Assembly: GCA_031409655.1 (NCBI GenBank)
Contig: JANNXQ010000196.1
Location: 1 to 43,646 of the forward strand
DNA: 43,646 nucleotides
Source of the DNA: Chthoniobacteraceae bacterium
Lineage (GTDB): Bacteria > Verrucomicrobiota > Verrucomicrobiia > Chthoniobacterales > Chthoniobacteraceae
Reading direction: 5' to 3'
Part shown: piece after piece, positions 671-26,341 of the stretch
How positions within the stretch are numbered: the first letter of the stretch is position 1
Layout of the letters: every line of letters begins with the position of its first letter
The notes under the pieces: generated by a model
Database searches by the model: none
Seen by the model: only the letters and a program-made list of their open reading frames with translations
Told to the model about the DNA's origin: nothing
Translations under genes and position numbers: made by a program

Positions 671-843
671 ACCACTCCGCGGATTTGCCTCGTCCTTCAG
701 GGAGCGGTCCATATTCTTCACAAAAACAAGCAAGAGAACACCCGCTCCCATCCTCGCGGGGCCTTGCGTCACCTCAGCCGCCGAACGCGGCGCGCCACTC
801 TCGACATCGTCTGTTCGTTCCACCCATCCGCTCCATTCACCCT

Positions 844-7348: not shown

Positions 7349-7402
7349 ATAAAATATTAATAAATCCGTTGCGACGGAGTCATTGCTTGATAAAATAATC
7401 AA
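7349..7402 (+). promoter_or_regulatory. Putative sigma70 promoter for the giant-protein operon, with overlapping palindromes
   Basis: AT-rich UP-like tract (7349-7365), TTGCGA (7369-7374), 16-nt spacer, extended -10 TG-A-TAAAAT (7388-7396). Palindromes TCCGT-N4-ACGGA over -35 and TTGAT-N6-ATCAA over -10. Confidence 0.5.
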
Positions 7403-7439: not shown

Positions 7440-10400
7440 ATGAAGTCCCTACCCAAAACTGGTTTCATCGAGCCCCTCGAAGCTCGCATCGCTCCCGCAG
7501 TCATTCGGATCGGGGCGACGGGAATCTTTGAAGACCCGTCCGACACCGAATATCGCGAAGCCGGTGGTCCCCGTCCTTCGCCCTTTGATGCGCTGGGATT
7601 CACGGATACTTCCGCGTCGAGCGATCTGGTCTCACTGGCGGTCGATAGCGCGCTGAGCGACAACACCTTTTTCTTGCGCCTCCAGGCTGGCGATACGGTC
7701 TTTCGGTTGACCGAGTCGAGCAACTACAAGGAATTCATCACGGTGAAGACCGGACAGGTGATCGCTTTCTTCACGGACAGCAATGGCGACAATGAATTCA
7801 ACGATGGCGAGCTGACCGGTCTTTCCTTGGGGGCGAATGCCGCGGTCGATGTCAATGGCAGCGTCAATGGCGACATCGTCACGAACCTCGATGAACGCGG
7901 GACCAAGGATCGGGCGGACGACACCGTGAATTTGACGGGTTTGGTGTCGCCGAAGCAGGGGATCAGAAGTGTGGGCGTCCTCGGCGGATCTGTGTTTGGG
8001 AGTGTCCTCAGTGGCGGCCCGATCCTGAGCCTCACGGTAAAGACGAATGTGGAAAATGTCCTCGCCGGTGCGGCCGCGGACGGGGTGAGTTTTGATTTCT
8101 TCAAGTCGGCTGGAGGCGAGGGGCAGGTGTCATTCACTGCCGCTCCCGGGGAGATCGGCGCTTCGATCTCCAATGTCGTCGTCGGTTCGATCACCGGAAG
8201 ACTTGCCGCCGGTGGGGCAGGGGCGAGCGCCAAAGGTGGCTCTCTCACCAATATTCAGGTGACGGGTGACGCGGACGGATTCGAGCTTCTGGCGGGAGCG
8301 GGTGGCGCGGGTGATGCGCCGAGCAAGAAGCTCAATGGCGGCCTCGGTGGCAGTGTCACGAATGTGTTCGTCAGCGGCTTTGTCGATAACTCGCCGAACA
8401 ACGCCGTGGTCGTGCGCGCAGGCGATGGCGGTGATGCGGAGCCCACCGGCCGGGGCGGCGCGGGTGGTCTGCTGAAAAATATCAACGTCGGCTTTGGCCT
8501 CGTCGGCAAGACGCCCGTGCAGTCCACCCCCATCCTCGGTGACAACGTCACGCTCGCCGCGGGCGATGGCGGTGATGGCAAGACGGGCGGCATTGGCGGG
8601 GCCGCTTCCCTGATCGAGGTGCGGGTTCAGACTTCGGACGTGCAGGGCAACGAGATCGACCTCCAGGCTGGCAATGGGGGTAATAGTATTTCGCCTGGGG
8701 GCATTGCTGGGGCGGGCGGATCGTTGCGGGACATCGAATTGAACAACGTGATTTCGACGCCAAATGGCGACATTTTCGTCCAGGCAGGCAATGGCGGCGG
8801 TGGCGGTGCTTCGAGCAGAGGGGCGGCGGGCGGCTCCGTGTTGAACGTGTCGCTGCTCGGGTTTGATTTGCAGGTCCTGGCGGGTGATGGCTCGGACGGG
8901 ACGATCGGGGGCAATGCCGGTTCGGTGACGAATGTGACCGCCGTGCGCGACAATCTGGTCGTGCCGCGCAATGTGCTCATCAATGCCGGGCACGGAGGCG
9001 TCGGCTTTCAAACGAATGGTGGCCTCGGCGGCACCGTCCACAGCGTCACCGTCGAAGACGGCAACTTTCAGTCCTTCCTCATCAATGCCGGCCTCGCGGG
9101 TGATGGTGGAGACGGCATCGGCGGCAAGGGCGGTAAGGGCGGCGGAGTATCCGCGGTCAACGTCTCCGACCGGGACACCAATTTTGGGGTGACCTCGACC
9201 CTGGAGGGCGAGGTCGTCCTGCGGTCGGGGCGCGGGGGCGACGGTGCCAAAGGTGGCGGCGTCGGTGGCTTGATGGACAAAGTCGTCGTCACTGGCGATA
9301 ACTTGAACATGACGGCGATCGGCGGGAGTGGGGGCGACGCGCTGACGCTGGGCGCCGGTGCCGCGGGCGGTGCGCTGAGCGGCGTCCAACTCGAATCCTT
9401 TGGTTTGGTCAGCGGCAAGCCCATCACCGGAAAGCTCGAGGCGGGTGACGGCGGCGACGGCTTTGGCCGCGGTGCCGCCGGTGGCGCGGGCGGGGACGTG
9501 CGCGCTTCCAGCAGCCTCAAATTGAGTGGTGATCCCTCGGTCCAGCTCGCCAATTTCGTGGGCAATGGCCAGATCCTCGCGGGCGATGGCGGCGAGGGCC
9601 AGAACACCGTCGGTGCCGTCAAAGGTGGCGCTGCGGGCAAGGGTGGATCAATCATAGCGAGCGGACTTTTTGCCGAGCAGGGCGCTGGCGAAATGATCGC
9701 CGGCAACGCGGGCGTGAACGGTGCGCGGGCAGGCGCTGGCGGGAGCATTGTCAGCTTAAACAAGTCGGCAACCGGCGATCAAATTGGGTTGCGGGCATCG
9801 ACTTCGATCAAGGCTCTCGCCGGCAATGGGTCCCACGGGGGGCAGGGCGGCGACGTCATCGGGCTGTCCTACGGCAGCACCGCGCTGCTGCTGAATCCCA
9901 CCCCTTCCGGGACGATTCTGATCCAGGCCGGCAATGGCTCGGCCGACGGTTCGGCGGCCGGACGGGGCGGAAATATCAACGCCGTCAATGGTTCCCTCTC
10001 TTCTGGGGTGGGCATGACCACGCAATTCATCGCCGGCGCCGGTGGTGGCAGTGCGACGGCGACCAAAGCCGGTGCTGGGGGCACGATCAAGGACATCACC
10101 ATCTCCCGAGGCGGCGCAGTCGGTGCGGTCTTTACGCTTGCGGCTGGCGATGCCGGCCAGGCGCCGCTGGCGGGGACTGGGGCGGCGGGCGGGAATGTGA
10201 CCAATGTCGGTGTCACGGACATCTCCGCGGAGACGATCTTCCGAAGCGTCGCGGCGGGCGATGGCGGCGACGGCACGAAGAAGGCGGGTCCCGGCGGGAG
10301 CATTTCCGGCGTGGACGTGCAGCAGCACGACATCGGGGTGCGGACGGGCGAAAAATTTGGCTATGCGACGATGGGCGGATTGTTTGCGGGCGTCGCTGGT

Positions 10401-13400
10401 GCGGGGGCCAAGAGCGCCCTGAATGGCAGTGTCACCAAAGTGACGGCGAACTCGATATCCTCCATCGTGGCTGGGCGCGTCGGAGCACCGCACCTCGCGG
10501 AGACCGTCAGCGACATTTTCGTGGCCGGCACCAATAAGACCCTGCTCCTCGTCTCCAACCAGGCGCTGGTACCGAATGGTGAGTTCAAACTGCGCTTTGG
10601 CCCGGACGAGACCCTGACCCTGCCGGGTGGAGCGACGCCCGCCGCGGTCCAGCAAGCGCTCAATCTTCTCCCCAGCATCGCCGTCCTCGGTGGGGTGACG
10701 GTGGGCTCGGATGGTAATTTTGGCTACGCGGTCGATTTTACGAATCCCGGGAATCGCGCGGAAATCTCCGGCCTTGAGGTGATCGACGGTCTGGTCGAGG
10801 AAAAGATCAAGGGGGCCGTTGGCAACCCCAGTGTCACGTCAAGCATCGACGGCGGATCGGCGCTGCCGGTTGCGGAAGTGCGCTCCGGCCAGGCCAACCT
10901 TGTCGTCGTGGAGACGAATTCGGGCAACGTCGTCTTTGGGACTTCGGAGCAGGTCAGCGGGACCCCCACGAATGCGGAAGTACAGTTGCTCAACCTCGAG
11001 GCGCTCACGCCTTTCCCCACCGGTCAGTTCACCCTTTCGTTTGGGAATTTGGTCACACCGCTCCTGCCCGCCACCGCCGATGCGGCGGCGATTCAGACGG
11101 CGCTCAATACCCTCGCGACGATTCAAAATAGCGGCAGTGTCCTCGTCGCGCTTGCGCCGAACGAGACCGCGCGCTTCACGATTTCCTTCAATCTGGCCGG
11201 GGCCCGCGAAACCATCATCGGCACGCGGTTGTTGCCCGAGATTCAGCGCCTGGACCTCGGTGAAGTGCCCAATTTCTCCAATGCTTCCTTCACCCTGAGG
11301 TTCGGCGGTCAGACCACCGTCCCGCTGCCGGATGATGCGACCGCCGCGGATATCCAGGCGGCCCTGAATGCCCTCTTTCCCATCCAAGCGCTCGTCCCAG
11401 GAAGTAATGGCGGGGTGCAAGTCACTGACCTCGCGGGTGATCAGTTTGACATCAAGTTTGTCAACAAAACCACGGGGATCGGGATCAACGGGGAGCAAAC
11501 CGCGATCACCGGAATCGGCCTCCTGCCAGAAGTCCAGCGGGTGAGCCTCGGAACCCTGCCGGCGGTCCCCGGTGCCACCTTCACCCTGGCCGTCGGAAAT
11601 GAGCGCACGACCGCCATTCCGGCGAATGCGGGGGCCAGTCAGATCCAGGCGGCGCTGAATGCCCTGCCGTCGATCCTCGCCGCTGGTGGCGTGGACGTCG
11701 CGCTCGGTGCGAATGGAGCGGTGAACATCACCTACCGGGTGGCCGGCGACCAACTGGCGCTGACGAGCGACGCGCTGCAAAAAGCGCAGCAACTGATCGA
11801 CCTCAACAGCCTCAGTGGGCTCTCGAACGCGGAGCTCGCCCTCACCTTGAAGAACGCCCTCGAGGTCCTCGAGGCGACGAAGGGGACCGCGCTCAATCTC
11901 GCGATCACCGAGATCCAGCCCGGGCAGTTTAATTTCAGCAGCTCCACGGTGACGAACGGCACCCCGACCACGCAGGAAATCCAGCGGATCAACACCGCGG
12001 CGATTGTCGGAAATGGGGCGCAGTTCACCCTGACCTTCGGCGGGCAGACGACGGCACCGATCCTGGTGGCGACGATCAACGCGCTTACGGTCCAGGCCCG
12101 ACTGAACGCGCTCCCGGTCATTGCTTCCCTCGGAAGTGTGGTCGTCACTGGGGCCACGCCGAATTTCGACATCGCCTTCAGCACCACCGGCGACGTGCCG
12201 TCGATCACCGGCACCGCCGCAGTGCCCGAGGCTCAGCGATTGAACCTCGGCCCGCTTTTTGCCGACCCGACCGGCGAGTTCAGCCTCACCTTCAATGGCG
12301 AGACCACGCTGCCCTTGCCCGTCAACACCGCCGCTGCCCAGGTCCAGGCTGCGCTCAATTTACTCAGCTCGATTCAGGCCGAGGTCACGGGCACGCCGGG
12401 CACCGGGATTTTCGACATCAGATTCGCGAACACCGGGACGCCCGCCAACCAACCCGCGATTATCGCGCTCGGTGGCGGCCTCTCGAGTCACGAGCGTCAG
12501 GCGCTCAACCTCGGCTCGCTCACGGCCTACACCAGCGGCTTCTTCCAGCTCACCTTTGAGGGCGAAACCACGGCACCACTACCGGTGACGGCGACGGCCG
12601 CTCAAATCACCGCGGAGCTCAACAACCTGCCGGCGATCCAGGAGACCCGCGCCGGTCGGACCGGGCTGGTCAGCGTGGCCGCTTCAGGGGCCGGTCGGTT
12701 CGACATCGTTTTCAATTCCTTTGGCGATCAGACGCCGGTGACCGCCCTCGGCGCCGTGGCGGTGGACCGCTATCCAGTGGCCGTTTCCCAAGTCCAGGCT
12801 GGCGTCCAATTACCCGTGCTCGTGAGCGAGACCCGGAGCGGGGATGCCTCTGGCGCGGATGTGGCGGAACTGGTCCGCGGCGGGGTCGGAGTGAGCGAAG
12901 TGCAGCGGGTGGATCTCTCCGCGCTGGCCGGCGCGACGGTGGGGAACTTCACCCTGGCCTTCGGGGTTCTGACCACGCTGCCGATCGCCGTGGATGCCAC
13001 TGCGCTCGAAGTCCAGAACGCGCTCAATTCCCTCCCGACGGTGCAGTTGGCGGGCGGAGTGACGGTGGTGGCTGGCCCAGGCAAGAGCTTCGATGTGACC
13101 TTTGGCCAACAGGCTGATCAAGCGTCCCTGGTCGGGCTGACCCGCGTGGCGGAGACGCAGTTGGTGGATCTGGGCGCCCTGACCGGGGTCGCGGGCGGGG
13201 AGTTTATCCTGAACTTTGGGAACTACTCGACCGCTCCGATCAGCGTCGCGGCGACGGCGGCCCAGGTGGAAGCGGCCCTCGAGGCGATCCCCACTGTGCA
13301 GGCCAGCGGCGGCGTCACCGTCGCGGCGGCTGGTGCCGGCAAATTCTCCGTCACCTTCCAGCAACTCTCGAATATCGCTCCGCTGAGTGGCTTCGGCGGC

Positions 13401-16058
13401 GGAACCACCGGGCACGAGGTGCAGCAGATCGCGCTCGGCAGCCTGGCCGGGGTGACGGGTGGAAAATTCACCCTCACTTTCAATGGTGAGACCACCGCTC
13501 AGCTTCCGGTGACGGCCACGGCCGCGGAAGTCCAGGCAGCGCTCAATGCGCTCGATTCGGTGAAGGATTCCCGCACGGACCGCACCGGCGCAGTGGTCGT
13601 CGCCCTGACTTCGGCCCCGGCCGCTCCGCCGGTCTTCTCAGTTTCCTTCAATATCTTCGGTGATCAGCCAGCCCTTGGTGGAAAGAGTCTGGCCACAGGA
13701 GACCGCACCTTTGCGGCCACGGAATTGCGCGCCGGCACCTCCGGCACTGCCGTCCCGGTGGTGGAGTTGATCGCGGGCACGGGCTTGGTGAAAGAGGTTC
13801 AAACGATCGATCTCGCGGCGGTGCGCGCGAGCACGAGTGAGTTCCAGTTGCGTTTCGACAATAATCCGACCGATGCGACTCCAGCCCGGACCACGGCGTT
13901 GCTCCCGGCGAATGCCACGCCTGCGGACATCCAGGCGGCGCTCAATGCAATCGCTTCGATCACGACCGCGGGTTCCGTGTCCGTGGCCGCTGGCGTGGGC
14001 GACAAGGTGGATGTGAGCTTCTTGTCCTTCGGAAATCAGCAGCCCATCTCCGGATTTGGCGGCGTCCATGAACAGCAGACAGTCGGCCTCGGCAGCCTCG
14101 CCACAGAGGCCAATGCGCTCTATCGCCTGGCCTTTAATGGCGAGTCCACCCGCGCCCTGCCGGTCACCGCGACGGCGGCGGATCTCGATGCGGCGCTCGA
14201 TGCCCTTGCCGCGATCAAGGCGCTCCGGCCCGACAATACCGGTTCGGTGAGCGTCGTGCAGACGCTTCCGGGAGTGTTCCAGGTGGATTTCAACGACCTC
14301 GGAAATCAGTCCGCGTTCGGCGGGGTCGGAGCCGTCTCCATCCAGCCAACGCTCGATGTCCGGGAAATCGTCGGCGGTGGCAATTTTGGCCTCGTCGTCA
14401 GCGAGACTCTGGCGGGGCAGGCGGCGGCCGTTCCGACCGCGATTCTCAGCCCGGGCACCGTCTCCAGTCGCGAGGTTCAGAACGTGGACATTTCCAATGT
14501 CATTGGCCTCTCGAGCGGCATCTTCCGGGTGGCGTTTGGGGCCAATCAAACGGCCTTTCTTTCCCGCCTCACGACGGCGGCGGATCTTTCCTCTGCCCTC
14601 AACGGTCTGCTCTCGGTCCAAAATGCCGGCGGAGTCACCGTCCAGAATGGGGCAAGCAACACCTTCGAGATCACCTTCGTCAGCAATGGCGATCAGGCCG
14701 ACCTCTTCAGCGCCTCGGGTGGAGTGCTCGAGATCCAGCATCTCGACACGGGCCTCCTTCAACTCCCCGGCAACTCGCAATTCGTCCTGCAATTCGGAGC
14801 TAATTCGACCGCGCCGCTGCCGGAGACGGCCTCGCTCGCCACGGTCTCCAACGCCTTAAACCTTCTGACCAGCGTCCAGAATGCCGGAGGAGTGATCGTG
14901 ACCCAGGGTTCCGGTGGCTTCGATGTGAAATTCAACGTCCCCGCAAATCAAGCGGCGATCATCGGTGCGGTGAGCCTGTTTGAACAGCAGTCGCTCGACC
15001 TCCAGAAATTGTCGGCCAACCTCGATGGTCAGTTTCAACTCGAGTTTGGCGGCGAAAAGACGGTCCTCTTGAAGTCCGGGTCGGCCCCGATCCAGGTCGA
15101 GCAGGCGCTCAATAATCTCGCGACCATCAAGGCCCTCGCTCCCGGGAATACGGGGAGCGTCAGTGTGGCCGGAGTGGCTCCGGGTTTGATGAACGTGAAC
15201 TTCAATGTCGCGGGCGATCAGCCTTTGATCTCGGGAACCACCAATGCCGTCGGCGTCTCCGCCAGACTGTCAAACCCGCCGACTCCCGCGGAACTGGAGG
15301 CGGCCTTGGACAGCCTGTCCTTCTTCGATGTCAGCGTGGTCAATGGCTCCCTGCCCGGGACCGTCCTCGTGAACTACTCGCAACTCGGCGACCAACCGCC
15401 GATCATCGCGACCAGTTTCATCCACGAGGAACAGCGGGTGGACATCTACTCAATCGGGACCTTCACCCTGCGCTTTGGCAATGACGAGACTGCGCCGCTC
15501 GCGCCGGACGCTACTGGCGCGCAGATCCGTTCCGCGCTCAATACGCTGCCGTCCATCATCGCCGCCGGCGGGGTCAGCGAGGTGAGCCTCGGCGAAAACA
15601 GCAGCTTCACCGTGGTCTTTGCGGGCGAAAGTGACGTCAACTTCCTCACGGCGACGCAGACGCTCGCACCCATCCCGGTGACCACCACCACCAATGGCAC
15701 CCTCACCGTGCGGGAGAAGCAGAATATCTCCTTTACGGAAAAGGGCGCCTTTGTGGGCGAAGTGACCAACGCATTCGTTGGCTTCAAGGCCGCGAACTTT
15801 GTCGGGGCGATCTACGATTACAACGAGATCGATTCGAATGTCTTCCACTTCATCGAGCAAAACGGCCTCTACACCGAGGGCAATGGCGTCCCCGGCTTTA
15901 ACGCCACGCCGCCTGGCGATATCGCCTTATTCAATGAAGGCGACATGCCGATCGACGGCATCATCATGGCCCGCATCCTGGACCAGAGGACCATCAATTT
16001 CACCCCCGAGGCGAAGTTCACCGCCACCGGCTTCTTCGATTTCAATAACAAGATCTAA
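7440..16058 (+). CDS. Giant surface/extracellular protein A (2872 aa): LEPR-XLL-like N-terminal motif, Gly-rich scaffold, 17 nested EVQ/FTLTFG repeat domains
   Basis: ATG at 7440 gives MKSLPKTGF-IEPLEARIAPA. Many AGxGGxG...GGxGG units, then ~85-aa repeats EVQxxxL...GxFTLTFGGxTTxPLP...ATAAxVQAALNAL...GGVxV...FxVxF...GDQ. Confidence 0.85.
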   Translation: MKSLPKTGFIEPLEARIAPAVIRIGATGIFEDPSDTEYREAGGPRPSPFDALGFTDTSASSDLVSLAVDSALSDNTFFLRLQAGDTVFRLTESSNYKEFITVKTGQVIAFFTDSNGDNEFNDGELTGLSLGANAAVDVNGSVNGDIVTNLDERGTKDRADDTVNLTGLVSPKQGIRSVGVLGGSVFGSVLSGGPILSLTVKTNVENVLAGAAADGVSFDFFKSAGGEGQVSFTAAPGEIGASISNVVVGSITGRLAAGGAGASAKGGSLTNIQVTGDADGFELLAGAGGAGDAPSKKLNGGLGGSVTNVFVSGFVDNSPNNAVVVRAGDGGDAEPTGRGGAGGLLKNINVGFGLVGKTPVQSTPILGDNVTLAAGDGGDGKTGGIGGAASLIEVRVQTSDVQGNEIDLQAGNGGNSISPGGIAGAGGSLRDIELNNVISTPNGDIFVQAGNGGGGGASSRGAAGGSVLNVSLLGFDLQVLAGDGSDGTIGGNAGSVTNVTAVRDNLVVPRNVLINAGHGGVGFQTNGGLGGTVHSVTVEDGNFQSFLINAGLAGDGGDGIGGKGGKGGGVSAVNVSDRDTNFGVTSTLEGEVVLRSGRGGDGAKGGGVGGLMDKVVVTGDNLNMTAIGGSGGDALTLGAGAAGGALSGVQLESFGLVSGKPITGKLEAGDGGDGFGRGAAGGAGGDVRASSSLKLSGDPSVQLANFVGNGQILAGDGGEGQNTVGAVKGGAAGKGGSIIASGLFAEQGAGEMIAGNAGVNGARAGAGGSIVSLNKSATGDQIGLRASTSIKALAGNGSHGGQGGDVIGLSYGSTALLLNPTPSGTILIQAGNGSADGSAAGRGGNINAVNGSLSSGVGMTTQFIAGAGGGSATATKAGAGGTIKDITISRGGAVGAVFTLAAGDAGQAPLAGTGAAGGNVTNVGVTDISAETIFRSVAAGDGGDGTKKAGPGGSISGVDVQQHDIGVRTGEKFGYATMGGLFAGVAGAGAKSALNGSVTKVTANSISSIVAGRVGAPHLAETVSDIFVAGTNKTLLLVSNQALVPNGEFKLRFGPDETLTLPGGATPAAVQQALNLLPSIAVLGGVTVGSDGNFGYAVDFTNPGNRAEISGLEVIDGLVEEKIKGAVGNPSVTSSIDGGSALPVAEVRSGQANLVVVETNSGNVVFGTSEQVSGTPTNAEVQLLNLEALTPFPTGQFTLSFGNLVTPLLPATADAAAIQTALNTLATIQNSGSVLVALAPNETARFTISFNLAGARETIIGTRLLPEIQRLDLGEVPNFSNASFTLRFGGQTTVPLPDDATAADIQAALNALFPIQALVPGSNGGVQVTDLAGDQFDIKFVNKTTGIGINGEQTAITGIGLLPEVQRVSLGTLPAVPGATFTLAVGNERTTAIPANAGASQIQAALNALPSILAAGGVDVALGANGAVNITYRVAGDQLALTSDALQKAQQLIDLNSLSGLSNAELALTLKNALEVLEATKGTALNLAITEIQPGQFNFSSSTVTNGTPTTQEIQRINTAAIVGNGAQFTLTFGGQTTAPILVATINALTVQARLNALPVIASLGSVVVTGATPNFDIAFSTTGDVPSITGTAAVPEAQRLNLGPLFADPTGEFSLTFNGETTLPLPVNTAAAQVQAALNLLSSIQAEVTGTPGTGIFDIRFANTGTPANQPAIIALGGGLSSHERQALNLGSLTAYTSGFFQLTFEGETTAPLPVTATAAQITAELNNLPAIQETRAGRTGLVSVAASGAGRFDIVFNSFGDQTPVTALGAVAVDRYPVAVSQVQAGVQLPVLVSETRSGDASGADVAELVRGGVGVSEVQRVDLSALAGATVGNFTLAFGVLTTLPIAVDATALEVQNALNSLPTVQLAGGVTVVAGPGKSFDVTFGQQADQASLVGLTRVAETQLVDLGALTGVAGGEFILNFGNYSTAPISVAATAAQVEAALEAIPTVQASGGVTVAAAGAGKFSVTFQQLSNIAPLSGFGGGTTGHEVQQIALGSLAGVTGGKFTLTFNGETTAQLPVTATAAEVQAALNALDSVKDSRTDRTGAVVVALTSAPAAPPVFSVSFNIFGDQPALGGKSLATGDRTFAATELRAGTSGTAVPVVELIAGTGLVKEVQTIDLAAVRASTSEFQLRFDNNPTDATPARTTALLPANATPADIQAALNAIASITTAGSVSVAAGVGDKVDVSFLSFGNQQPISGFGGVHEQQTVGLGSLATEANALYRLAFNGESTRALPVTATAADLDAALDALAAIKALRPDNTGSVSVVQTLPGVFQVDFNDLGNQSAFGGVGAVSIQPTLDVREIVGGGNFGLVVSETLAGQAAAVPTAILSPGTVSSREVQNVDISNVIGLSSGIFRVAFGANQTAFLSRLTTAADLSSALNGLLSVQNAGGVTVQNGASNTFEITFVSNGDQADLFSASGGVLEIQHLDTGLLQLPGNSQFVLQFGANSTAPLPETASLATVSNALNLLTSVQNAGGVIVTQGSGGFDVKFNVPANQAAIIGAVSLFEQQSLDLQKLSANLDGQFQLEFGGEKTVLLKSGSAPIQVEQALNNLATIKALAPGNTGSVSVAGVAPGLMNVNFNVAGDQPLISGTTNAVGVSARLSNPPTPAELEAALDSLSFFDVSVVNGSLPGTVLVNYSQLGDQPPIIATSFIHEEQRVDIYSIGTFTLRFGNDETAPLAPDATGAQIRSALNTLPSIIAAGGVSEVSLGENSSFTVVFAGESDVNFLTATQTLAPIPVTTTTNGTLTVREKQNISFTEKGAFVGEVTNAFVGFKAANFVGAIYDYNEIDSNVFHFIEQNGLYTEGNGVPGFNATPPGDIALFNEGDMPIDGIIMARILDQRTINFTPEAKFTATGFFDFNNKI
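10572..15734 (+). repeat. Intragenic block of 17 degenerate ~85-aa repeat domains plus 17 ~12-13-aa VxExxxG linker units
   Basis: Counted from the translation: 15 intact domains, one split domain and one circularly permuted domain. Linker blocks of 5, 3, 3, 2, 3 and 1. Confidence 0.8.
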
Positions 16059-16084
16059 CCCCCTTTCCCCAACCGCCCACCGCC

Positions 16085-19000: not shown

Positions 19001-21211
19001 CCCTCCGGCGCCGATCTGGAAGTCGTGGCCTTCGACACCTTTGTGCCGGTGACCGCGGCACCCGACGGGATCGCCGACCTGAGTTTCATCAACTACGCCA
19101 CCGCGAACCCGACGAAAAATCCTCTCGCGCGGCACGTCCTCGAAAGCTGGGGCTATGATCGTCTGTCATTTGGCTCGAATCTGACCTTCACGCCACTGGC
19201 CGAGCATTTCATCGACATCACGGCCGGGAATGGGGGCAATGGCGTCATCGGTCGTGGCGGTGCCGGTGGATTTCTCGGCGGCGGGCTCACCCAGTTAAAT
19301 CTCGTCAATGCCCAGGGGATTCCGAGCCCGACGCTGTTTGGCGCGTTTGATATCACGCTGCCCATCAATGTCGCCTTCGATGGCAAGGTGCGGTTGACGG
19401 GCGGAAACGGCGGCAATGGCTTCACCAGTGGCGGGGTGGGCGGCGGCGTGCTCGGGGCCAATGTGCATTTCGCGCCCGGGACAGGGGTCTTCCATACCGA
19501 CACGACGCTGCTGGGTGGCAATGGTGGCTTCGGCATCTCCGGGAGTGGCGGCGCGGGTGGGAGCCTCGTGGCGAATAGCCTTGAGGCTGGCGTGCTGCTT
19601 ACGGCGGGCGACGGTGGGCGGGGCAAGATCGGCGGCGACGGCGGGTCGATCATCGGCCATGGACTCCAGAATTTTCCGGATAATCGCGAACCCTTCCAGA
19701 TTTTGTTCGCGGGGAACGGCGCCAATGGGGTGACGAAGGGGGGCAATGGCGGAAACATCAGTAACTACCACGGCCAATTTAACCTCTCATTTTCGGGTAA
19801 TTCGGCCGGGGTGATCAATTACGTGGCCGGCGATGGCGGCACGGCCGTGTCGGGCCCCGGGGGCAATGGCGGCGACGTGAAGAATGCCAGCCCCTTCATC
19901 TTCGGCGATGGTACGAATCGCATGAGCGGCGACGTTTACTTGCGCGGTGGAGAGGGTGGAGACGGAATGTCGGGCGGACGCGGCGGCGACGTTACGGGCT
20001 TCGCCAATAAGGCTTCCGAGCAGGACTCTCCGGCCGTGCTGAGTTTCCTCGCCGGCTCCGGAGGCGATGCCACGAGGGGACGTGGCGGTCGTGGGGGAAA
20101 TATCTCCGAGATCAGTTCTTCATCGAAAGGCGCGCCGAGCTTCGGCACCGCACCTCTCGAGGACGGCGTCCCGGCGCCATTCTCGACGCGCGCGACCGTT
20201 TTCGGCTTCAATCGGGTCCTGGCGGGCGACGGCGGATCGAGTTCGGGCGGGATCGGCGGTGACGGGGGCGCCATCGCAAATATATTCAGCGGGAACTCGG
20301 GCACGGCTTTTGCCATCATTGCCGGGTCCGGGGCCGCGGGCCTGAGCGTCGGTGGCAACGGCGGATCCGTGACTAACGCCCGGGTGGACGTCGGGGGAGG
20401 GGCACTCGGCAAGGCCCTGGTGATCGCCGGTGCCGGGGGTGATGCGGGCGCTTTCGTTGCCAATCCGAATGACCCCGCTCCCAACCAGGCGGAAAAGGCT
20501 TTCGGAGGGAAGGTCGGCAAGGGTGGCGACGGCGGGAGCATCCGCAATTACACCCAACTCGGAGGCATTGGCGCCCGGGCCGATCTCATCGCTGGAAACG
20601 GCGGCGATACCGTTTTCTATGGCCGCATCGGCGATCAGGTGACTTCCGTCGGCAAGGGTGGATCGATCTCGAATATCTTCGTGGACGGAAATCTCGGAAA
20701 CGTTTCTCCGAATGTTCCGATCAAATCCTACAACGACCTCAGGGCCGGCCAGAGTATTGCTGATTTTGTTGCCGCCAATCTCCGCGATCGTTTTGCCGGG
20801 GGCGACATCGGCGACGATGTCGGCAACGTCGGGGTGATCGTGGGTGCAGCCGGACGGCTCAAGTCGGTCTTCGCCGGGTTCGATAGCCAGAACCAACCCA
20901 TCTATCAATCGTTCCCTGCCTTCAAGGGGATCAACGGGAGTCTGACCGAGGTGAGCGCCCGGAGCATCATGTCGGCCGTGGCCGGAAGCGTCGAACGGAT
21001 CGCGGCAATCGCTTTGGCGCGAAATGTCACCGTCAACGCGTCGGGTGAGATCGGCACGGACAAGACGGGACTCCCTGACTTTCTCGACAAGTTCGGGAAC
21101 GCCGTTTCCGAGCCGGTCACCGATGGGGCGCTGGTTGATGGCGCCATGGTGCTCGCCAAGGCCGCGGTCACCAGCAGCACCGCGGGGAATATATTTGTGA
21201 TCCCGTCTTGA
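16085..21211 (+). CDS. Giant surface/extracellular protein B (1708 aa): LEPR-XLL-like motif, Gly-rich scaffold, FG-GAP/VCBS-like propeller insert
   Basis: MIDHPLSRPG-IEPLEARIAPA; N-domain homologous to protein A; AGxGGxG units. FG-GAP-like VDFDQDGFTDVV, GDFNGDGHHDIAVG, GDFDGDGFTEIAVV, VDFNQDGNADFVAI. Confidence 0.85.
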   Translation: MIDHPLSRPGIEPLEARIAPAALLPTIRQAELAYDANPNGDRHFVKAQHGEPILLSAGQVLSTGLAARDGTYLLFVEKGEALVFLTDLNNNNEVDFNEITGIAAGEGLRFTSFVDIHGDIVTNYDADKTLSDSSISSIGEEFTKGDGLLLNNSRIEAITLRSLTINDLTDQNADGFVDATDVGLRLALSSYSIHGQVLAGRGFGVVGDVTSGLLVDVAGNADQLTKFNGQGLTYYIPSKPTIGAIRTGTAASGEYFSFGISRADNIQGNLSNFAVTKSAPGGDIYNIRSAAKGAFNVSGFYAGNGGIGARGGNIDTVTLSNDDASGYQIIAGNGGSGATGGQGGSILGFTDLGSSTGQVLLDVGDGGSGTTGSGGNGGTLGLGTITTTIPGVPSVTPLTNINVNAGFTIALGDGGSGFTSGGNGASLTKAVLSTPEGSVEFGRAVVSTTRDPLHNPVDGKIIRDPNFPGIIGRTLPVDFDQDGFTDVVFTTSSPEQLVVQFGDGLGGFRLNPLTNRPDRIYLDGPIGAEALAVGDFNGDGHHDIAVGSSEVGNYAGITVFLAKWEDANANGLTDAEDVNKNRKDDFQGFYTGRTSVLPSLSSGDAAGSPILDTSYRYTRSANAINDLVVGDFDGDGFTEIAVVATHITIGAGLTGRQNQVVMVLTADQELGADGKVRQTGQFYADVGTRGTSVPNVGANPFVPFVALGGSNDARIEATALTSAPSAFSSVGNVVTYDVIVGTTVLGTNSVNNSTNTQITGGMLIMDFSFKSPYGPTLSGVSFGSVDTNRELTKQAGTPAFVKDFTIVDFNQDGNADFVAITEAPAGFLLAAQGDGLGNAIVVTKNPFTSDNAGFFLGPQGYGIGTDQVSLRPTELLGYGTLFPIPGLPLPPGQPPNPPLDYVVDAFDTTDPGKMDDVAVLNYSIGRTSPGPGANYTINEFSIWDFTLASAGRLVVDNPGVDFSFDLAFGTVRPSGADLEVVAFDTFVPVTAAPDGIADLSFINYATANPTKNPLARHVLESWGYDRLSFGSNLTFTPLAEHFIDITAGNGGNGVIGRGGAGGFLGGGLTQLNLVNAQGIPSPTLFGAFDITLPINVAFDGKVRLTGGNGGNGFTSGGVGGGVLGANVHFAPGTGVFHTDTTLLGGNGGFGISGSGGAGGSLVANSLEAGVLLTAGDGGRGKIGGDGGSIIGHGLQNFPDNREPFQILFAGNGANGVTKGGNGGNISNYHGQFNLSFSGNSAGVINYVAGDGGTAVSGPGGNGGDVKNASPFIFGDGTNRMSGDVYLRGGEGGDGMSGGRGGDVTGFANKASEQDSPAVLSFLAGSGGDATRGRGGRGGNISEISSSSKGAPSFGTAPLEDGVPAPFSTRATVFGFNRVLAGDGGSSSGGIGGDGGAIANIFSGNSGTAFAIIAGSGAAGLSVGGNGGSVTNARVDVGGGALGKALVIAGAGGDAGAFVANPNDPAPNQAEKAFGGKVGKGGDGGSIRNYTQLGGIGARADLIAGNGGDTVFYGRIGDQVTSVGKGGSISNIFVDGNLGNVSPNVPIKSYNDLRAGQSIADFVAANLRDRFAGGDIGDDVGNVGVIVGAAGRLKSVFAGFDSQNQPIYQSFPAFKGINGSLTEVSARSIMSAVAGSVERIAAIALARNVTVNASGEIGTDKTGLPDFLDKFGNAVSEPVTDGALVDGAMVLAKAAVTSSTAGNIFVIPS

Positions 21212-21261
21212 TCCGAAGCGTGATCCGCGCTCCTCGTCTCTTCTTAACCCACCCTTACTCC

Positions 21262-24200
21262 ATGCGTCCACGTTCCCTCTCCCACGCAGTCTTCTCCGCG
21301 CTCGCGATCACGCTCTTTGCTGCGGCTGGCTTTGCTCCGCAGGCGGTCCGCGCGCAGGCTCGGTTGCAGTTCATCGATGCCGGGGGGCTTCGCGATTTCG
21401 TGCCGTCGGAGGATGAGGTCTATCTCCGGTGGTCGGCTGGGGCGCCTGCCGGGGTCCGGGGAGCGGTCGAAAGTCGGATCGCCGGTGCGACCGTCCTCGA
21501 TAGTGTCGGGCCGCATGCGGTGGTAAAGCTCAGTCAGCGGCTCGATGTGGCCCGGTTGCGTGCGGGCACCGATGAGTTTCGCGGAGCCTTTCCAGGGGTG
21601 GAAGTGCTGCCGGTGCTTTATGTCGCCGGCGAGACGCAGGGCAAGGCGAGTCGCCGGGTTCTGACGCGGCAACTGCTCGTGGGCATCGCGGCGGGGCAGA
21701 CGCCCGCCCAGGTGGGCGCGCTGGTGGGCGCGGTCGCGGCCCGGGAATCTGCGGAACCCGGGGTGGCGATCCTGGATCTGGCCAACGCCTTCCGAATGAT
21801 CGAGGCGCTCGCCGTGCTCCAGAAAGCCGGGATCCCGGCGAATCCTCTTCTCGGTCATTCGTGGGATACGTTCGCTTTGCCCAAGGATTTCTTTTTCAAT
21901 GCGCAGTGGCACCTCCTCAATACTGGCCAGGACGGCAGTCTCTTTGGCATCGACGCCAATGTCCTCGATGCCTGGCCGCTTACTCTCGGTGCGGGCGTGA
22001 CCATCAGTATCGTTGATTCGTGTCTTCAGACCGGGCATCCCGATTTGGTGCAGAACACGCCGTCGGTCAATTCGGGGCTGCATTTCGATTTTCTCGACGA
22101 AGACACCGATCCCAATCCCCACTTCGGTGACAACCATGGCACCTCCGTTGCCGGCGTGGCTGCCGCCAGGCAGAACAACGGGTCGATCGATCCGCAGACT
22201 GGTCTCATGCTCGGGGTCTCGGGCTCCGCTCCGGATGCGCGGCTCATCGGCTTGCGTTTGATCAATGAGAGTGGCTTCGTGCCAGTAACGGATCTCGAGG
22301 AGGCCACGGCCTTGTTTTGGAAGGTGGGCATCGATCAAGTGCCGATCATCGATATCTCGAATAATAGCTGGGGTCCCGGACCCTTCATCGGCCCGGATAT
22401 CCTGACCCGCACGGCGCTGCGCGACGCCACCCTCCTCGGGCGAAACCGGAAGGGGCAGATCACCCTCTTTGCCGCTGGCAATGGGCAACTGCGGGGCCGG
22501 GAGGCAAACCTGAACGGCTACTGCAATTCGCGTTACGTCATCGCCGTCGGCGCGATCGACAATTTGGGGAAGAAATCCTCCTACAGTGAGCTCGGCGCGA
22601 ATGTCCTTATTTCCGCGCCTTCCAGTGGCGGCACGCTCGGCATCGTGACCACGGATGATCAGGATGTGGCAGGGTACAATCCGCCGAGATCGGTCATTCA
22701 GGAACTGCCGAACACCGACTACACGAACCAGTTTGGCGGCACCTCCTCGGCGACGCCGCTCGTCGCTGGCGTTACCGGACTGCTGCTTGCGGCCAACCCC
22801 AGTCTTGGCTGGCGCGACGTCAAAGAAATCCTCGCCTCGACCGCCCGCCAGGTGGATGTCGCCGATCCGGGTTGGGACTTGAATCCAGCGCTCGCCGGGG
22901 TTCAGGACAACGCGGCGGGTTTCCACTTCAACCCCAAGTTTGGCGGCGGCATGGTGGACGCTTCCGCGGCCGTGATTCGGGGACTCGAATGGACCAACCT
23001 GGCCGAGGAAGTGCAGCAGGAGGTCAAGTTTCCGGCCCCGCAGCTCCCGCGTACCATTCCGGATTTTGTTTTTACGGCCAACCCCCCGACCAGCGCGCGG
23101 CTGGACTTCGCCTTCGCCGGACCGAATTTCCCGAATCTGCGGGTCGAAGTGCTCGAAGTCACGGTGGACATCACACACGCGCGCCGCAGCGATCTCGAGA
23201 TCTCGCTGGTCTCTCCGGGCGGCACCACGAGCATTCTGGTCGCCGGTGGCACCCCGCTCGGGGACAACAAGGATTTCAAGTATTCCGTTTTCGACGGCAA
23301 AGGAGGCGTGGTGAAGCAGGCGATCGGCTGGACCTTTACCTCGGTACAACATTGGGGCGAAAATAGCGCGGGAACCTGGCAGCTCTTTGTCAAGGACAAG
23401 GCCACGACTTTCACGGGGAAGGTGAACTCGGCCAGCGTCCGTCTCTATGGCACCCCGAGTACGGTGCAGCGGTTTAAATTTGAGGCGCCCCGTTATTCGG
23501 TCATCGAGCCCGACAACGCCCCCGGTGCGGCCCTCCGGGATTTGAAAGTGAAAGTCCTTCGGCTGGGTTCTTCAGTGGGCACCGCCGCCGTCTCATTTTC
23601 GACCAGCCCACGGGGCACCGCCACGGCCGCGGTTGAAGGCGTTGCAGATCCCGATTACCTCCCGATCGCTGGAACTCTGCTTTTCGGGAATGGGGAGACT
23701 TTTAAGGAGATCACCGTGTCCGTGCTCAATGACGATGATCCGGAGAGCACCGAACCGATCTATTTGCTCCTCAAAAATCCCGTGGGGGCGAGTTTCGGCG
23801 GCGTCAATCTCACGACGATCGAACTGATCGACAACGACGAAAATCGGGTGACCGTGATTGCCAGTGATTCCGCAGCGGCGGAACCCAGCCTGGGCCTTCC
23901 GGAAGATCTGGGAGTCTTCACCATTTCGCGGACCGTGCCCTCGGCGCAACCGCTCGTCGTGCGCTTCAGTATTGCGGGCACCGCGACCCCGGGCCTGAAC
24001 CCGGGCGATGATTACGTGCCGGTTGAATTGACCGCCACCATCCCGGCCAACGAAACTTCGACCACCGTCACCATCGAGGCGCGGGACGATGAAACGATCG
24101 AGGGTTCGGAAACGGTGATTCTGTCCCTCACGACCGACTCCAACTACCAACTTGGAGTGCCCGCCAGCGCACAGGTCCGGATCATCGATAATGATCGCCC

Positions 24201-26223
24201 GAGTGTCCAGACGACGGCCATCGAGAATGGAGTGCTCCGTGAAAATGATCAGGCGCGCATCGGCACGGTGCGCATCTCGCGCACCGACGACACGACCCTT
24301 CCGCTGGTTGTGAATCTGGCCTACGGGGGTAACCAGGTGAACGGCGGCCAATACGTGGACGCCGATGCCCCGGCCCTGCAGCCAAACAAGGCCCTTCCGG
24401 ATACTTTGGTCATTCCCTCCGGACAATCATTCGTCGATTTGCATATCAAGACGGTGAATGACGCGGTCTATCAAGCATCCAAAGCGATCGTCATCAGTCT
24501 CGATCAGAGTCTCGATTATAACTTCACTTTTGGCTTCCTCAGTTCGGCCAACGTCACGGTCATCGAAGACGACGCCTTGCCGGATACGCGGATTCCCTCG
24601 GTCAAGGTGAGTCTGCCAAAAGCAAACACGCGGTTCGTGGCACCCTCGACCGTCACGGTCAGTGGCACGGCGGCCGACAATACCAAGGTGCAGGCCGTGG
24701 AATACCGCGTGAACAGCGATACCTGGAAAATCGTCCCTGGTGTGACCGCCGGAGCCAGCGTGACCTGGTCGTTAAACTTGAATGTCCCGACGCATCCGAC
24801 CGCCCCGGAAGTTACCTATGGTGCAAACGTGGTCGAACTAAGGAGCGTTGACGAGGATGGCAATCGTTCGGTGACTGGAGTGGCGTCTTTCAAGTACGTC
24901 CTAGAGCGAGCCATTCAAGTGTCGGTGCTCGGTCAGGGCGGAGTGACCAATGGATTCCTCGGCACGACAACCCGCGAAGTCGGAACGGCGTATGAAATCA
25001 CGGCTCAACCCCTTGCCGGGCAGGTCTTCCTGCGCTGGACCGGTCTCGTCGGGGGATTCCCAAATCCGAGCGACCGGAAAATTCGCTTTAAGCCGGAAGA
25101 AATCATCGGGGCGGCCTTGCAGGCGGAGTTTATCCCGACGCCATTCGTTCCGGCAATTATCGGCAACTATTCTGGCTTGGCCCGGAGAGTGCCATTCACC
25201 TTCGACTCCTCTGCGTATCTGACCGTGAATGTGACGCCGACGGGAGTCTTCACTGGCAAACTCTCGATCAAAGGTGTGACCTACTCATTGAAAGGCGAAT
25301 TTAACGGCGCGGGTGTTTATGTCGGAAGTGTGCCGCGCAAAGGCGATCTTCCCATCACGCTCAATTTGAGCATCGACCTTGCGCCAGCCGGCACTCAGCG
25401 GATCACTGGCACCGTCGTTTTGCCGACCGGTACGCTCAACGCTCTATTGGATCGCGCTCCCTTCAGCAAGACGGTGCCGCCGCCGGCCAGTGTCTCCGGG
25501 AAGCAGTTCACCATGCTCCTGCCTGCGAACACCCAATCGACCAATGGAGACTTCGAGCCCGACGGCGATGGCTACGGCACCGTAAGTATCGATACGGCCG
25601 GTCAGGTAAAAGTGATCGGAACGCTGCCGGATGGGACGAAGTTCACTTCCACCCAGTCTTTAACCAAGAACCTCACCTGGCCGCTCTTTGTCGAGCTTTA
25701 CAGCCGGAAGGGGATCGTGATCGGGACCATCACTCATGATGCCTTGCAGCCGGCCTCGGATTTCCGTGGAAGTTACAGTTGGTTCAAGCCGGCAAAAAGC
25801 TCGGACAAGTACTTCCCACTCGGGTTCATCATCGAACAAAACGACCTTCTCGGGTCTGCCTACTCCTTCACCAGTGGACGGGCCCTTGCTGGGTTTGCCA
25901 ACACCCCGGACAATGCCGCCATCACGTTGGATTTTGGCAATCTGGCGAACATCATTCTAAAAGTTGCGACCTTCAATGAAAGTAACCTGATCACAGTCAA
26001 TGAAGCCGCAAGTGCTTCGAAAGGTGAAGGACTCACGATGAAGGTCAGTACCCGCGACGGCACCTTTACGGGCAGCTTTACCCATCCGCTCGGCGGAAAA
26101 AAGGTGTCGATTCAGGGGGTTCTTTTCCAGAAGCAACAAACGGCCATGGGCGGATTTTTGGGGATTTCCATCCCGGGAGTGCCGTTGCAAACGGGACGGG
26201 TGCTTCTGGAAAGCGCGCCGTAG
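21262..26223 (+). CDS. Secreted S8 subtilase of kexin/proprotein-convertase type with P domain, Calx-beta and Ig-like domains and a C-terminal beta-rich domain (1653 aa)
   Basis: Signal peptide from ATG 21262; QWHL.NTGQ. Catalytic Asp (IVDS), His (NHGTSVAG), oxyanion Asn (FAAGNG) and Ser (FGGTSSATP). LGWRDVKEIL, FNPKFGGGMVDA. P domain HARRSDLEISLVSP...WGENSAGTWQL. Calx-beta GTLLFGNGETFKEITVSVLNDD. Confidence 0.92.
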   Translation: MRPRSLSHAVFSALAITLFAAAGFAPQAVRAQARLQFIDAGGLRDFVPSEDEVYLRWSAGAPAGVRGAVESRIAGATVLDSVGPHAVVKLSQRLDVARLRAGTDEFRGAFPGVEVLPVLYVAGETQGKASRRVLTRQLLVGIAAGQTPAQVGALVGAVAARESAEPGVAILDLANAFRMIEALAVLQKAGIPANPLLGHSWDTFALPKDFFFNAQWHLLNTGQDGSLFGIDANVLDAWPLTLGAGVTISIVDSCLQTGHPDLVQNTPSVNSGLHFDFLDEDTDPNPHFGDNHGTSVAGVAAARQNNGSIDPQTGLMLGVSGSAPDARLIGLRLINESGFVPVTDLEEATALFWKVGIDQVPIIDISNNSWGPGPFIGPDILTRTALRDATLLGRNRKGQITLFAAGNGQLRGREANLNGYCNSRYVIAVGAIDNLGKKSSYSELGANVLISAPSSGGTLGIVTTDDQDVAGYNPPRSVIQELPNTDYTNQFGGTSSATPLVAGVTGLLLAANPSLGWRDVKEILASTARQVDVADPGWDLNPALAGVQDNAAGFHFNPKFGGGMVDASAAVIRGLEWTNLAEEVQQEVKFPAPQLPRTIPDFVFTANPPTSARLDFAFAGPNFPNLRVEVLEVTVDITHARRSDLEISLVSPGGTTSILVAGGTPLGDNKDFKYSVFDGKGGVVKQAIGWTFTSVQHWGENSAGTWQLFVKDKATTFTGKVNSASVRLYGTPSTVQRFKFEAPRYSVIEPDNAPGAALRDLKVKVLRLGSSVGTAAVSFSTSPRGTATAAVEGVADPDYLPIAGTLLFGNGETFKEITVSVLNDDDPESTEPIYLLLKNPVGASFGGVNLTTIELIDNDENRVTVIASDSAAAEPSLGLPEDLGVFTISRTVPSAQPLVVRFSIAGTATPGLNPGDDYVPVELTATIPANETSTTVTIEARDDETIEGSETVILSLTTDSNYQLGVPASAQVRIIDNDRPSVQTTAIENGVLRENDQARIGTVRISRTDDTTLPLVVNLAYGGNQVNGGQYVDADAPALQPNKALPDTLVIPSGQSFVDLHIKTVNDAVYQASKAIVISLDQSLDYNFTFGFLSSANVTVIEDDALPDTRIPSVKVSLPKANTRFVAPSTVTVSGTAADNTKVQAVEYRVNSDTWKIVPGVTAGASVTWSLNLNVPTHPTAPEVTYGANVVELRSVDEDGNRSVTGVASFKYVLERAIQVSVLGQGGVTNGFLGTTTREVGTAYEITAQPLAGQVFLRWTGLVGGFPNPSDRKIRFKPEEIIGAALQAEFIPTPFVPAIIGNYSGLARRVPFTFDSSAYLTVNVTPTGVFTGKLSIKGVTYSLKGEFNGAGVYVGSVPRKGDLPITLNLSIDLAPAGTQRITGTVVLPTGTLNALLDRAPFSKTVPPPASVSGKQFTMLLPANTQSTNGDFEPDGDGYGTVSIDTAGQVKVIGTLPDGTKFTSTQSLTKNLTWPLFVELYSRKGIVIGTITHDALQPASDFRGSYSWFKPAKSSDKYFPLGFIIEQNDLLGSAYSFTSGRALAGFANTPDNAAITLDFGNLANIILKVATFNESNLITVNEAASASKGEGLTMKVSTRDGTFTGSFTHPLGGKKVSIQGVLFQKQQTAMGGFLGISIPGVPLQTGRVLLESAP

Positions 26224-26248: not shown

Positions 26249-26287
26249 CGGCGCGGCCTAGGAGACCCCGTAGGGTCGCGCCGTTTT
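26249..26287 (+). terminator. Possible intrinsic terminator after the protease gene
   Basis: CGGCGCGGCCT...GGGTCGCGCCG stem (with G-U pairs, large loop) followed by only four T. Confidence 0.3.
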
Positions 26288-26341
26288 CGTCTCTCCAGAG
26301 CCGTTGCGGTGTCGTGTCGCCGTTCACGGGCGGTCCCGACC

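Follow-up and report, generated by a model that had tools for sequence, protein, structure and literature searches.

A conserved pair of leader-tagged, predicted beta-solenoid proteins in Chthoniobacteraceae and a candidate exporter

We analyzed a 43,646-nucleotide (nt) stretch of DNA from a Chthoniobacteraceae bacterium (assembly GCA_031409655.1, contig JANNXQ010000196.1). This stretch, the window, is the entire contig C196 of the source genome G000; below, G, C and L numbers denote genomes, contigs and loci, respectively. The window contains three co-oriented open reading frames (ORFs), A (2872 amino acids, aa), B (1708 aa) and C (1653 aa), with gaps of 26 nt between A and B and 50 nt between B and C, as stated in a preliminary description made from the sequence alone. 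Our data support that A and B are paralogous, leader-tagged, adhesin-like proteins without signal peptides that are encoded as a conserved unit. Probably, they are a pair of solenoid proteins that is exported by an ABC-less machine of GAF-HlyD, HlyD, RRE-M50-HlyD and TolC proteins and that jointly serves as an adhesin or as a scaffold on the surface. The preliminary description also made gene C a dedicated convertase-like protease for A and B; as a general rule this did not hold, and we consider such a role unlikely. The features of A and B are as follows.

7440..16058, plus strand: gene A, 2872 aa, predicted leader-tagged beta-solenoid scaffold with a repeat insert (ORF; no Pfam match; model)
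7440..7499, plus strand: A leader, last residues IEPLEARIAPA, predicted cut after Pro19 (sequence; residues 1-16 disordered in the model)
7500..8159, plus strand: A N-domain, homologous to that of B and containing an acidic loop, DxNxDN (profile)
8160..10544, plus strand: A glycine-rich predicted solenoid and first half of the C-cap (model; predicted local distance difference test, pLDDT, 92; predicted template modeling score, pTM, 0.89)
10545..15764, plus strand: A insert, ~87-aa repeats (16 complete, 1 partial) similar to add-on domains of phage tails and sheaths (PHROG matches)
15765..16058, plus strand: conserved C-terminal piece of A, contiguous with the cap in orthologues without insert (orthologue comparison)
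16085..21211, plus strand: gene B, 1708 aa, leader-tagged predicted solenoid with an inserted propeller (ORF, homologues, model)
16085..16147, plus strand: B leader, last residues IEPLEARIAPA (sequence; residues 1-22 disordered in the model)
17393..19174, plus strand: B FG-GAP beta-propeller (residues ~437-1030) between two solenoid rungs (PF01839, PF13517; fold match)
19175..21211, plus strand: second glycine-rich solenoid part of B and C-cap (sequence)

The A–B pair and its leader tag

A (residues 10-20) and B (residues 11-21) share one and the same 11-mer, IEPLEARIAPA. The N-domains of the two proteins match by BLAST (E 6e-7), and a profile of the A N-domain matches B at E 3.4e-13. The gene trio, the shared 11-mer and the N-domain homology described previously are thereby confirmed. 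The C-terminal cap attributed to both proteins was also detected, with a weak BLAST match (38 aa, 47% identity, E 0.016). The description of a Gly-rich body holds with a qualification: in A only residues 241-1035 are glycine-rich, the remainder being the repeat insert, and in B the glycine body is split by the propeller. The peak hydropathy over 11 residues was 1.65 in A and 1.24 in B, in both cases after the motif, versus 2.35 in C, which bears out that A and B lack a hydrophobic signal peptide and that C has a Sec signal. We found no Pfam or NCBIfam match in A, while FG-GAP repeats were found in B.

The exact 11-mer is present in seven ORFs of G000, i.e. A, B and five others, and a degenerate tag, ExLExR[IV]APA, has 38 occurrences in this genome compared to 0 in the reversed control. 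Because of these exact and degenerate copies, the tag is not a mark specific to A and B, and we ruled out that the 11-mer is an assembly motif peculiar to these two proteins. In 37 further tagged ORFs examined, the tag is located 2-24 residues from the start taken (four have no Met within 30 residues). In a Pfam scan of 35 tagged ORFs, 17 had any match and 16 had matches of the Chlam_PMP, FG-GAP, Calx-beta or beta-helix types. E11, L13, E14, R16 and P19 (A numbering) are invariant in 79 leaders, an invariance that is partly by construction as these leaders were chosen by the tag pattern; the residue following the tag Pro is Ala or Thr (Thr in some A orthologues from the sequence search).

Using a family set of 104 Chthoniobacteraceae genomes that are at least 85% complete, we identified B in 36 genomes (37 loci). 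B has a length of ~1550-1700 aa almost everywhere and is single copy in 35 of the 36 genomes. A is directly upstream of B in 33 of the 34 evaluable loci, the other three loci being cut by a contig end or not fetched; the sole exception is G044, in which no A feature was found within 3.2 kb. In a second set, whose 36 loci overlap in part with the first, A precedes B in 26 of 27. The order and adjacency of A and B are kept at 33-60% identity, while all other neighbors vary. A search of 300 genomes belonging to the other families of this phylum gave no B. These results support that A–B is a real conserved pair, and a function as paired surface adhesin or scaffold is the likely reading. Given the strict gene pairing, A and B would assemble or work together.

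We also considered that A and B act independently as adhesins and go back to an old tandem duplication, with nothing other than shared transcription holding them together. This would be in line with the frequent occurrence of tagged genes in tandem arrays and with a third A/B paralogue in G000 that stands alone, unlinked to the pair (contig C147, 1421 aa, E 1e-6). However, adjacency in 33 of 34 loci at this level of identity, with changing surroundings, argues against it, and we regard it as improbable. The third paralogue (L097:1166-5428) has the tag, a glycine solenoid and an FG-GAP insert. The arrays consist of tagged beta-helix-type genes (L091-L093; contig C126, 11 matches; contig C230, 6 matches), of which many finish with a common LxxTxDVxxREV-like strand that A does not have.

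The surroundings of the pair were recorded in the same loci. Among 31 loci evaluable for the gene after B (six others were cut), this gene is C in 4, a transketolase gene in 8, an exporter gene in 4 and another gene in 15. Upstream of A, recO is divergently oriented in many relatives (L024, L025, L027, L028, L125-L127, L130, L131, L133 and L144), while a photolyase region, not recO, is present in G000 and G001. In G019, a Baseplate J-like gene lies 3' of B (L022:12331-17193), possibly as part of a contractile injection or prophage region. In G027, which belongs to another family, a B-type C-cap is located at a contig end (L146:12518-12898); this genome also has an exporter homologue and three tags.

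The candidate exporter and its link to the tag

The exporter consists of GAF-HlyD, HlyD and M50-HlyD proteins, the last with a putative RRE domain (RRE-M50-HlyD), with or without TolC; in G000, the operon is on contig C287 and TolC on another contig. An operon of this type is located directly 3' of B, often including TolC, in G007, G010, G015, G082, G088, G092 and L087, and M50-HlyD is directly upstream of A in L089. The exporter-adjacent B loci are on scattered deep branches of a B tree, which was made with a quick method from 41 rows, midpoint-rooted and without G105, G104 and L085. The ExLExRIAP tag, near the start of 38 genes in G000, follows this exporter clade across genomes. Of 41 genomes compared, all 15 with a C287-type protease (at least 49% identity) have 2-41 tags; among the other 26, 24 have no tag, G016 has one and G027, with a 36% identical homologue, has three. 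In the family set, B and the exporter are both present in 32 genomes (i.e. 32 of the 36 with B), B alone in 4, the exporter alone in 6 and neither in 62. Four of the six exporter-only genomes carry A or B fragments, while G102 and G110 have no A/B match; in one of the four B-only genomes, GAF-HlyD is right after B.

The exporter protease has intact HELGH and NANPLMRFDG motifs and matches NF041824, the daptide intramembrane metalloprotease family, at E 6e-50. According to the available part of the source, the RRE-site-2 protease MpaP cleaves the daptide leader, ELExMEAP, behind its Pro, and a further enzyme of the cluster requires L(-7) and M(-4) for its RRE-dependent processing (10.1101/2023.03.08.531785). 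The LEARIAP sequence of the tag is in register with this leader at L(-7), E(-6), A(-2) and P(-1). Because the exporter protease is homologous to the daptide peptidase and the two leaders share this register, we predict a cut at IAP/A. In the pathway that we propose, the putative RRE domain would bind the tag, the intramembrane M50 zinc protease would cut at this site, and the chain would cross both membranes via an HlyD-TolC tunnel. Based on these sequence relationships, the RRE-M50 protease appears to be a better candidate than C for processing of A and B. The system resembles the daptide system in its homologous, putative RRE-M50 protein and in the L(-7), acidic (-6), A(-2) and P(-1) residues of the leader; it differs in that the cargo is 500-2900 aa, the protease is fused to HlyD, and no tailoring enzymes were found in the window.

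Several observations weigh against this pathway. The M(-4) residue that is essential in daptides is Arg in the tag. The match of the protease to NF041824 scores 170 bits, under the cut-off of 300, and the PqqD match is weak, occurring in 4 of 12 orthologues with a best E of 0.0026. The co-occurrence of B and exporter was counted among kin, which are not independent, so that a Fisher test of it was set aside, and in three genomes with B (G046, 87% complete; G065, 96%; G114, 96%) neither exporter gene was matched. Exporter adjacency in the family set (4 of 31 loci) is as rare as C adjacency, and the A–B–C order is itself retained in four genera. Moreover, a staphylococcal daptide leader is cut by a subtilisin-family peptidase (PMC12749797, available part), so that a subtilase is able to perform leader removal. 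Finally, we saw no SecA, ABC or other ATPase gene beside C287-type operons, and four genomes (G008, G010, G013 and G015) have canonical SecA only; the exporter thus lacks an evident motor. Two further analyses concern recognition of the tag: searching PDB sequences with an RRE-like domain profile gave nothing below E 0.3, and a complex prediction for the N-terminal domain of the exporter and the A leader scored 0.01, which is no evidence either way.

With three B genomes lacking a detected exporter and no motor in the operon, the tag might direct export or retention by another route (a SecA2-type module, Sec or vesicles), and the correspondence to the C287 exporter would then reflect shared ancestry. 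Yet the four genomes named above carry tags without a second SecA, the SecA2 module of G000 adjoins a giant gene with a different tag, and A–B is repeatedly linked to a C287-type operon; this route is thus quite improbable. Second SecA genes adjoin other exporter paralogues. One of these, on contig C17 (L053:171-17571), is of the SecA2 type (TolC, SecA_DEAD, HlyD, M50-HlyD) and faces a gene for a giant protein of ~3370 aa with a LETIEDR-type leader and fimbrial/DUF11 repeats. In a third exporter paralogue, on contig C295 (L054:2122-8801), the HlyD and GAF-HlyD genes are separated by a sigma-factor-like fusion gene. The C17 arrangement suggests that each exporter paralogue reads its own tag.

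Alternatively, A and B could be structural components on the outside of the export machine itself, i.e. an anchor, conduit or display platform for other tagged proteins. B, single copy nearly throughout, is almost one-to-one with a single-copy exporter, while the other tagged genes number from 0 to about 40; A and B account for two of only four tags in G007 and G008; in several genera, A-B-GAF-HlyD-HlyD-M50-TolC are consecutive and co-oriented; and the B-type cap outside the family occurs in a genome with an exporter homologue. However, G102 and G110 have the exporter with no A/B match, the related exporters on C17 and C295 have no A/B-like neighbor, and the inserts of A and B resemble ligand-binding passengers, and we give this alternative a low probability. 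The pathway in which A and B are cargo of the C287-type exporter is the reading that we retain.

Tag type and exporter have each been described. In planctomycetes, the motif PF07595 (RRLxxExLExRxLLA; LxLExLExRxxP in Tuwongella) is thought to be an export signal (PMC8567305, available part). As in PF07595/NF012209 (LEPR-XLL), the tag has an N-terminal ExLExR core and is found on dozens of large proteins per genome with extracellular domains and no signal peptide; unlike in that motif, it ends in IAP-A/T, has no RR start and is linked here to a specific exporter and to a predicted site of cleavage. No protein of G000 reaches the cut-off of the PF07595 and NF012209 models. A GAF-HlyD/HlyD/Peptidase_M50-HlyD/OEP module with a secondary SecA_DEAD has also been described, with no cargo named in the available text (Kamneva 2015, PMC4452313). 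The same three adaptor genes form one run here, with TolC nearby or, in G000, on another contig; in contrast to that module, the A–B-linked clade has no adjacent SecA_DEAD and several genomes lack a second SecA. A type I secretion cargo such as RTX adhesins found no counterpart, as Pfam detected no RTX repeats in A or B and we saw no ABC gene in the exporter loci. In a literature search outside of which most subscription journals lay, we found no paper on the A–B pair, its fold or the tag–exporter link.

Predicted folds and the passenger site

AlphaFold models of A residues 1-1040 (pLDDT 92, pTM 0.89) and B residues 1-1190 (pLDDT 87, pTM 0.89) predict both proteins to be parallel beta-solenoids with glycine hairpins, in which the leaders (residues 1-16 and 1-22, respectively) are disordered. 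In A, residues 232-1030 are modelled as a solenoid of at least 16 strand-AGxGG...turn...GGxGG-strand units with a period of 32-47 residues. The glycine segments of the A model have high pLDDT and are neither helix nor strand; judged from the model, they are candidate polyproline II hairpins. The best match of the A model was the EtpA adhesin (8vba; Z 19.1, root-mean-square deviation [rmsd] 4.5, 516 residues aligned), followed by the curli subunit CsgA (8c50; Z 17.7, rmsd 8.0, 355 aligned), while the match to the S-layer protein RsaA was poor (Z 10.4, rmsd 17.1); the structural matches have 10-12% identity. A Foldseek search of A against the PDB gave no match at E 0.001 and a weak match to a springtail antifreeze protein (7jjv; probability 0.72, E 0.13), and a viral structure library returned generic beta-helices only. 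The N-domains of A and B were hardly covered by these fold searches. The B propeller (residues 437-1030) matches 2z2n with Z 22.6 and rmsd 2.8 over 278 residues.

By its predicted long parallel beta-solenoid, A resembles beta-helix adhesins (EtpA 8vba, HMW1, antigen 43) and CsgA 8c50; unlike EtpA-type adhesins, A and B have no Sec signal and no TPS/autotransporter domain by Pfam, and a glycine hairpin is predicted at nearly every rung. The paired GxGGxG/GGxGG segments are like those of polyproline II bundles (7jjv, S16 gp38 and PE_PGRS proteins; 10.1101/2023.11.25.568672 and PMC13243192, available parts). By the same sources, gp38 is one bundle plus a few solenoid turns, whereas the hairpins of A alternate with solenoid rungs over ~800 residues in the model.

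A consists of a ~1100-aa core and an optional insert. Among 120 A homologues, in a search limited to lengths of 572-1820 aa, both cap halves were found in 57, of which 40 are insert-free. Nine A orthologues have 0-12 copies of the ~87-aa repeat or unrelated inserts, and the repeats of A itself match the phage families phrog_10909 (E 1.7e-20) and phrog_2839 (E 2.4e-16). In the orthologues at L032:11672-19168, L031:13696-18999 and L030:1256-6337, unrelated inserts are at the cap position or within the solenoid. Comparison of these sequences shows the cap position of A to be an apparent swappable passenger site. Each chain is pictured as forming a capped rod from which a passenger would be looped out, a fixed beta-propeller in B and variable phage-tail-like repeats in A.

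A bolder version of the pathway can be put forward tentatively. This would be a RiPP-like secretion system in which an RRE-site-2 protease cuts a daptide-type leader after IAP and feeds kilo-residue proteins into an ABC-less and SecA2-less HlyD-TolC tunnel; A and B would be its founding, near-obligate surface module, co-assembled into a fibre or platform of a hybrid fold with a polyglycine-II hairpin per beta-solenoid rung and swappable, looped-out passengers.

Gene C and the setting of the locus

The remaining features concern C and the ends of the gene trio.

21262..26223, plus strand: gene C, Sec-signal subtilase, 1653 aa (Pfam, alignment, hydropathy)
21988-22875, plus strand: C S8 domain (D252, H292, N407, S495) (Pfam, Kex2 alignment)
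23146-23439, plus strand: C P domain (PF01483, E 3.2e-18)
25135-26220, plus strand: C C-terminal domain, common to 8 ORFs of the genome (sequence comparison)
7369..7396, plus strand: sigma-70-like promoter candidate, 44 nt upstream of A (9/12, extended -10)
26249..26288, plus strand: G+C-rich hairpin 3' of C with a short run of U behind it, possible terminator (folding of an 87-nt stretch)

Pfam identified S8, P, Calx-beta and Big_7 domains in C, in agreement with the description of a Sec-exported S8 and P-domain protease on a Calx-beta/Ig stalk. As in kexin/furin (S8B; 1r64, 1p8j) and Aeromonas ASP (3hjr), C has the catalytic triad (D252, H292, S495) and the oxyanion Asn (N407), which align with Kex2 (E 7.5e-45). 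The aspartates of the S1 pocket that bind the P1 Arg we take to be D277 and D325 in Kex2 and D258 and D306 in furin. Unlike in kexin/furin, both are absent in C, Pro and Asn being present instead (SWGPGP vs SWGPAD and NLNGY vs NYDGY of Kex2), and the Asp following the catalytic Asp is also replaced; a C paralogue of G000 on contig C248 keeps both S1 aspartates. A and B contain no R-x-K/R-R site; A has two KK and B one RK. With the S1 acids missing, cleavage by C after the Arg of the tag was ruled out. Also unlike kexin/furin, C has a Calx-beta/Ig stalk and a C-terminal domain (~360 aa) common to seven other ORFs. In total, this domain ends eight ORFs of G000, none of which is tagged, placing C in a separate export class; it has no Pfam or PHROG match and is a candidate sorting or outer-membrane anchor domain. 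C would be exported separately, via Sec, as a surface protease.

The A–B–C order is present in G000, G012, G041 and G105, which represent four genera, and C is head-to-head with A in G002. In G001, of the same genus as G000, the order is photolyase-A-B-transketolase and C is located elsewhere. C-type orthologues are present in 18 of the 36 B genomes, adjacent in 5 and apart in 13; of the remaining B genomes, 6 contain a different kexin-like paralogue instead and 12 yielded no match at E 1e-60. No tag was found in 13 loci fetched around unlinked C orthologues. In the tree, the four C-linked B rows are on one branch (support 80) together with unlinked G019, G022, G123 and G124. Thus, the protease linkage is largely not conserved across the family, and what stands of it is an order kept in four genomes, of which those in the B tree (G105 is missing from it) are on one branch. 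In G041, two A–B-type loci (contigs C14 and C9), one of them with C, are on separate branches, possibly by transfer of an A–B–C block. The G002 orthologue (L033:1445-5950), in which Ala replaces the catalytic Ser and the pro-region is missing, is likely a pseudo-protease.

These patterns bear on whether C was recruited to the A–B operon in one sub-lineage, where it would mature or shed surface-located A and B, its S1 pocket having shifted away from Arg. The four conserved trios and the head-to-head copy, the short gaps with a hairpin after C and the subtilase that removes a daptide leader in one cluster (PMC12749797, available part) speak for this scenario. So could the S1 pocket, as both aspartates occur together in several unlinked copies (G091, G095, G098, G104, G112 and G113) but in none of the linked ones, which could be specialization; the unlinked copies of G001, G022, G065 and G124 likewise lack the S1 acids, though. 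Further against recruitment, C follows B in fewer loci than transketolase does, the branch with the linked rows is shared with unlinked members, 13 of 18 genomes keep the genes apart, 12 of 36 B genomes have no such protease, and the G002 copy appears inactive. We find recruitment for A/B maturation doubtful, while a lineage-limited role for C is possible. C is best described as a diverged surface subtilase, not a convertase; it probably joined the locus in one sub-lineage, would be dispensable for A and B in most of the family and probably shares their transcript here.

With respect to transcription, a promoter scan of the region gave 5 sites versus 3.7 +/- 2.1 in shuffles and was dropped as evidence; the candidate before A is suggestive by its location alone. 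The 87-nt hairpin stretch after C had z -1.9, with 7 of 200 shuffles equally good, and the hairpin was not called by the scan of the region. No RNA holder is listed for positions 15500-23500. Elsewhere in the window, positions 685-5064 encode a protein of 1459 aa that contains DUF3616 and choice-of-anchor Q repeats and is likely another surface protein.

Compared with the A–B pair, the protease is ordinary. In the available parts of the sources, the ExLExR "planctomycete export motif", a label carried by large surface proteins of PVC bacteria, has gone without explanation since 2004, and the M50/HlyD module has been without cargo since 2015. The locus described here gives this module a conserved, single-copy pair of candidate cargo proteins that is physically linked to it in several genera, and the parallel to daptides yields a precise prediction, namely a cut at IAP/A that depends on L(-7). 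If true, a solenoid with glycine hairpins and looped-out passengers, as modelled here, would be a scaffold of an unusual kind for an abundant family of soil and freshwater bacteria.

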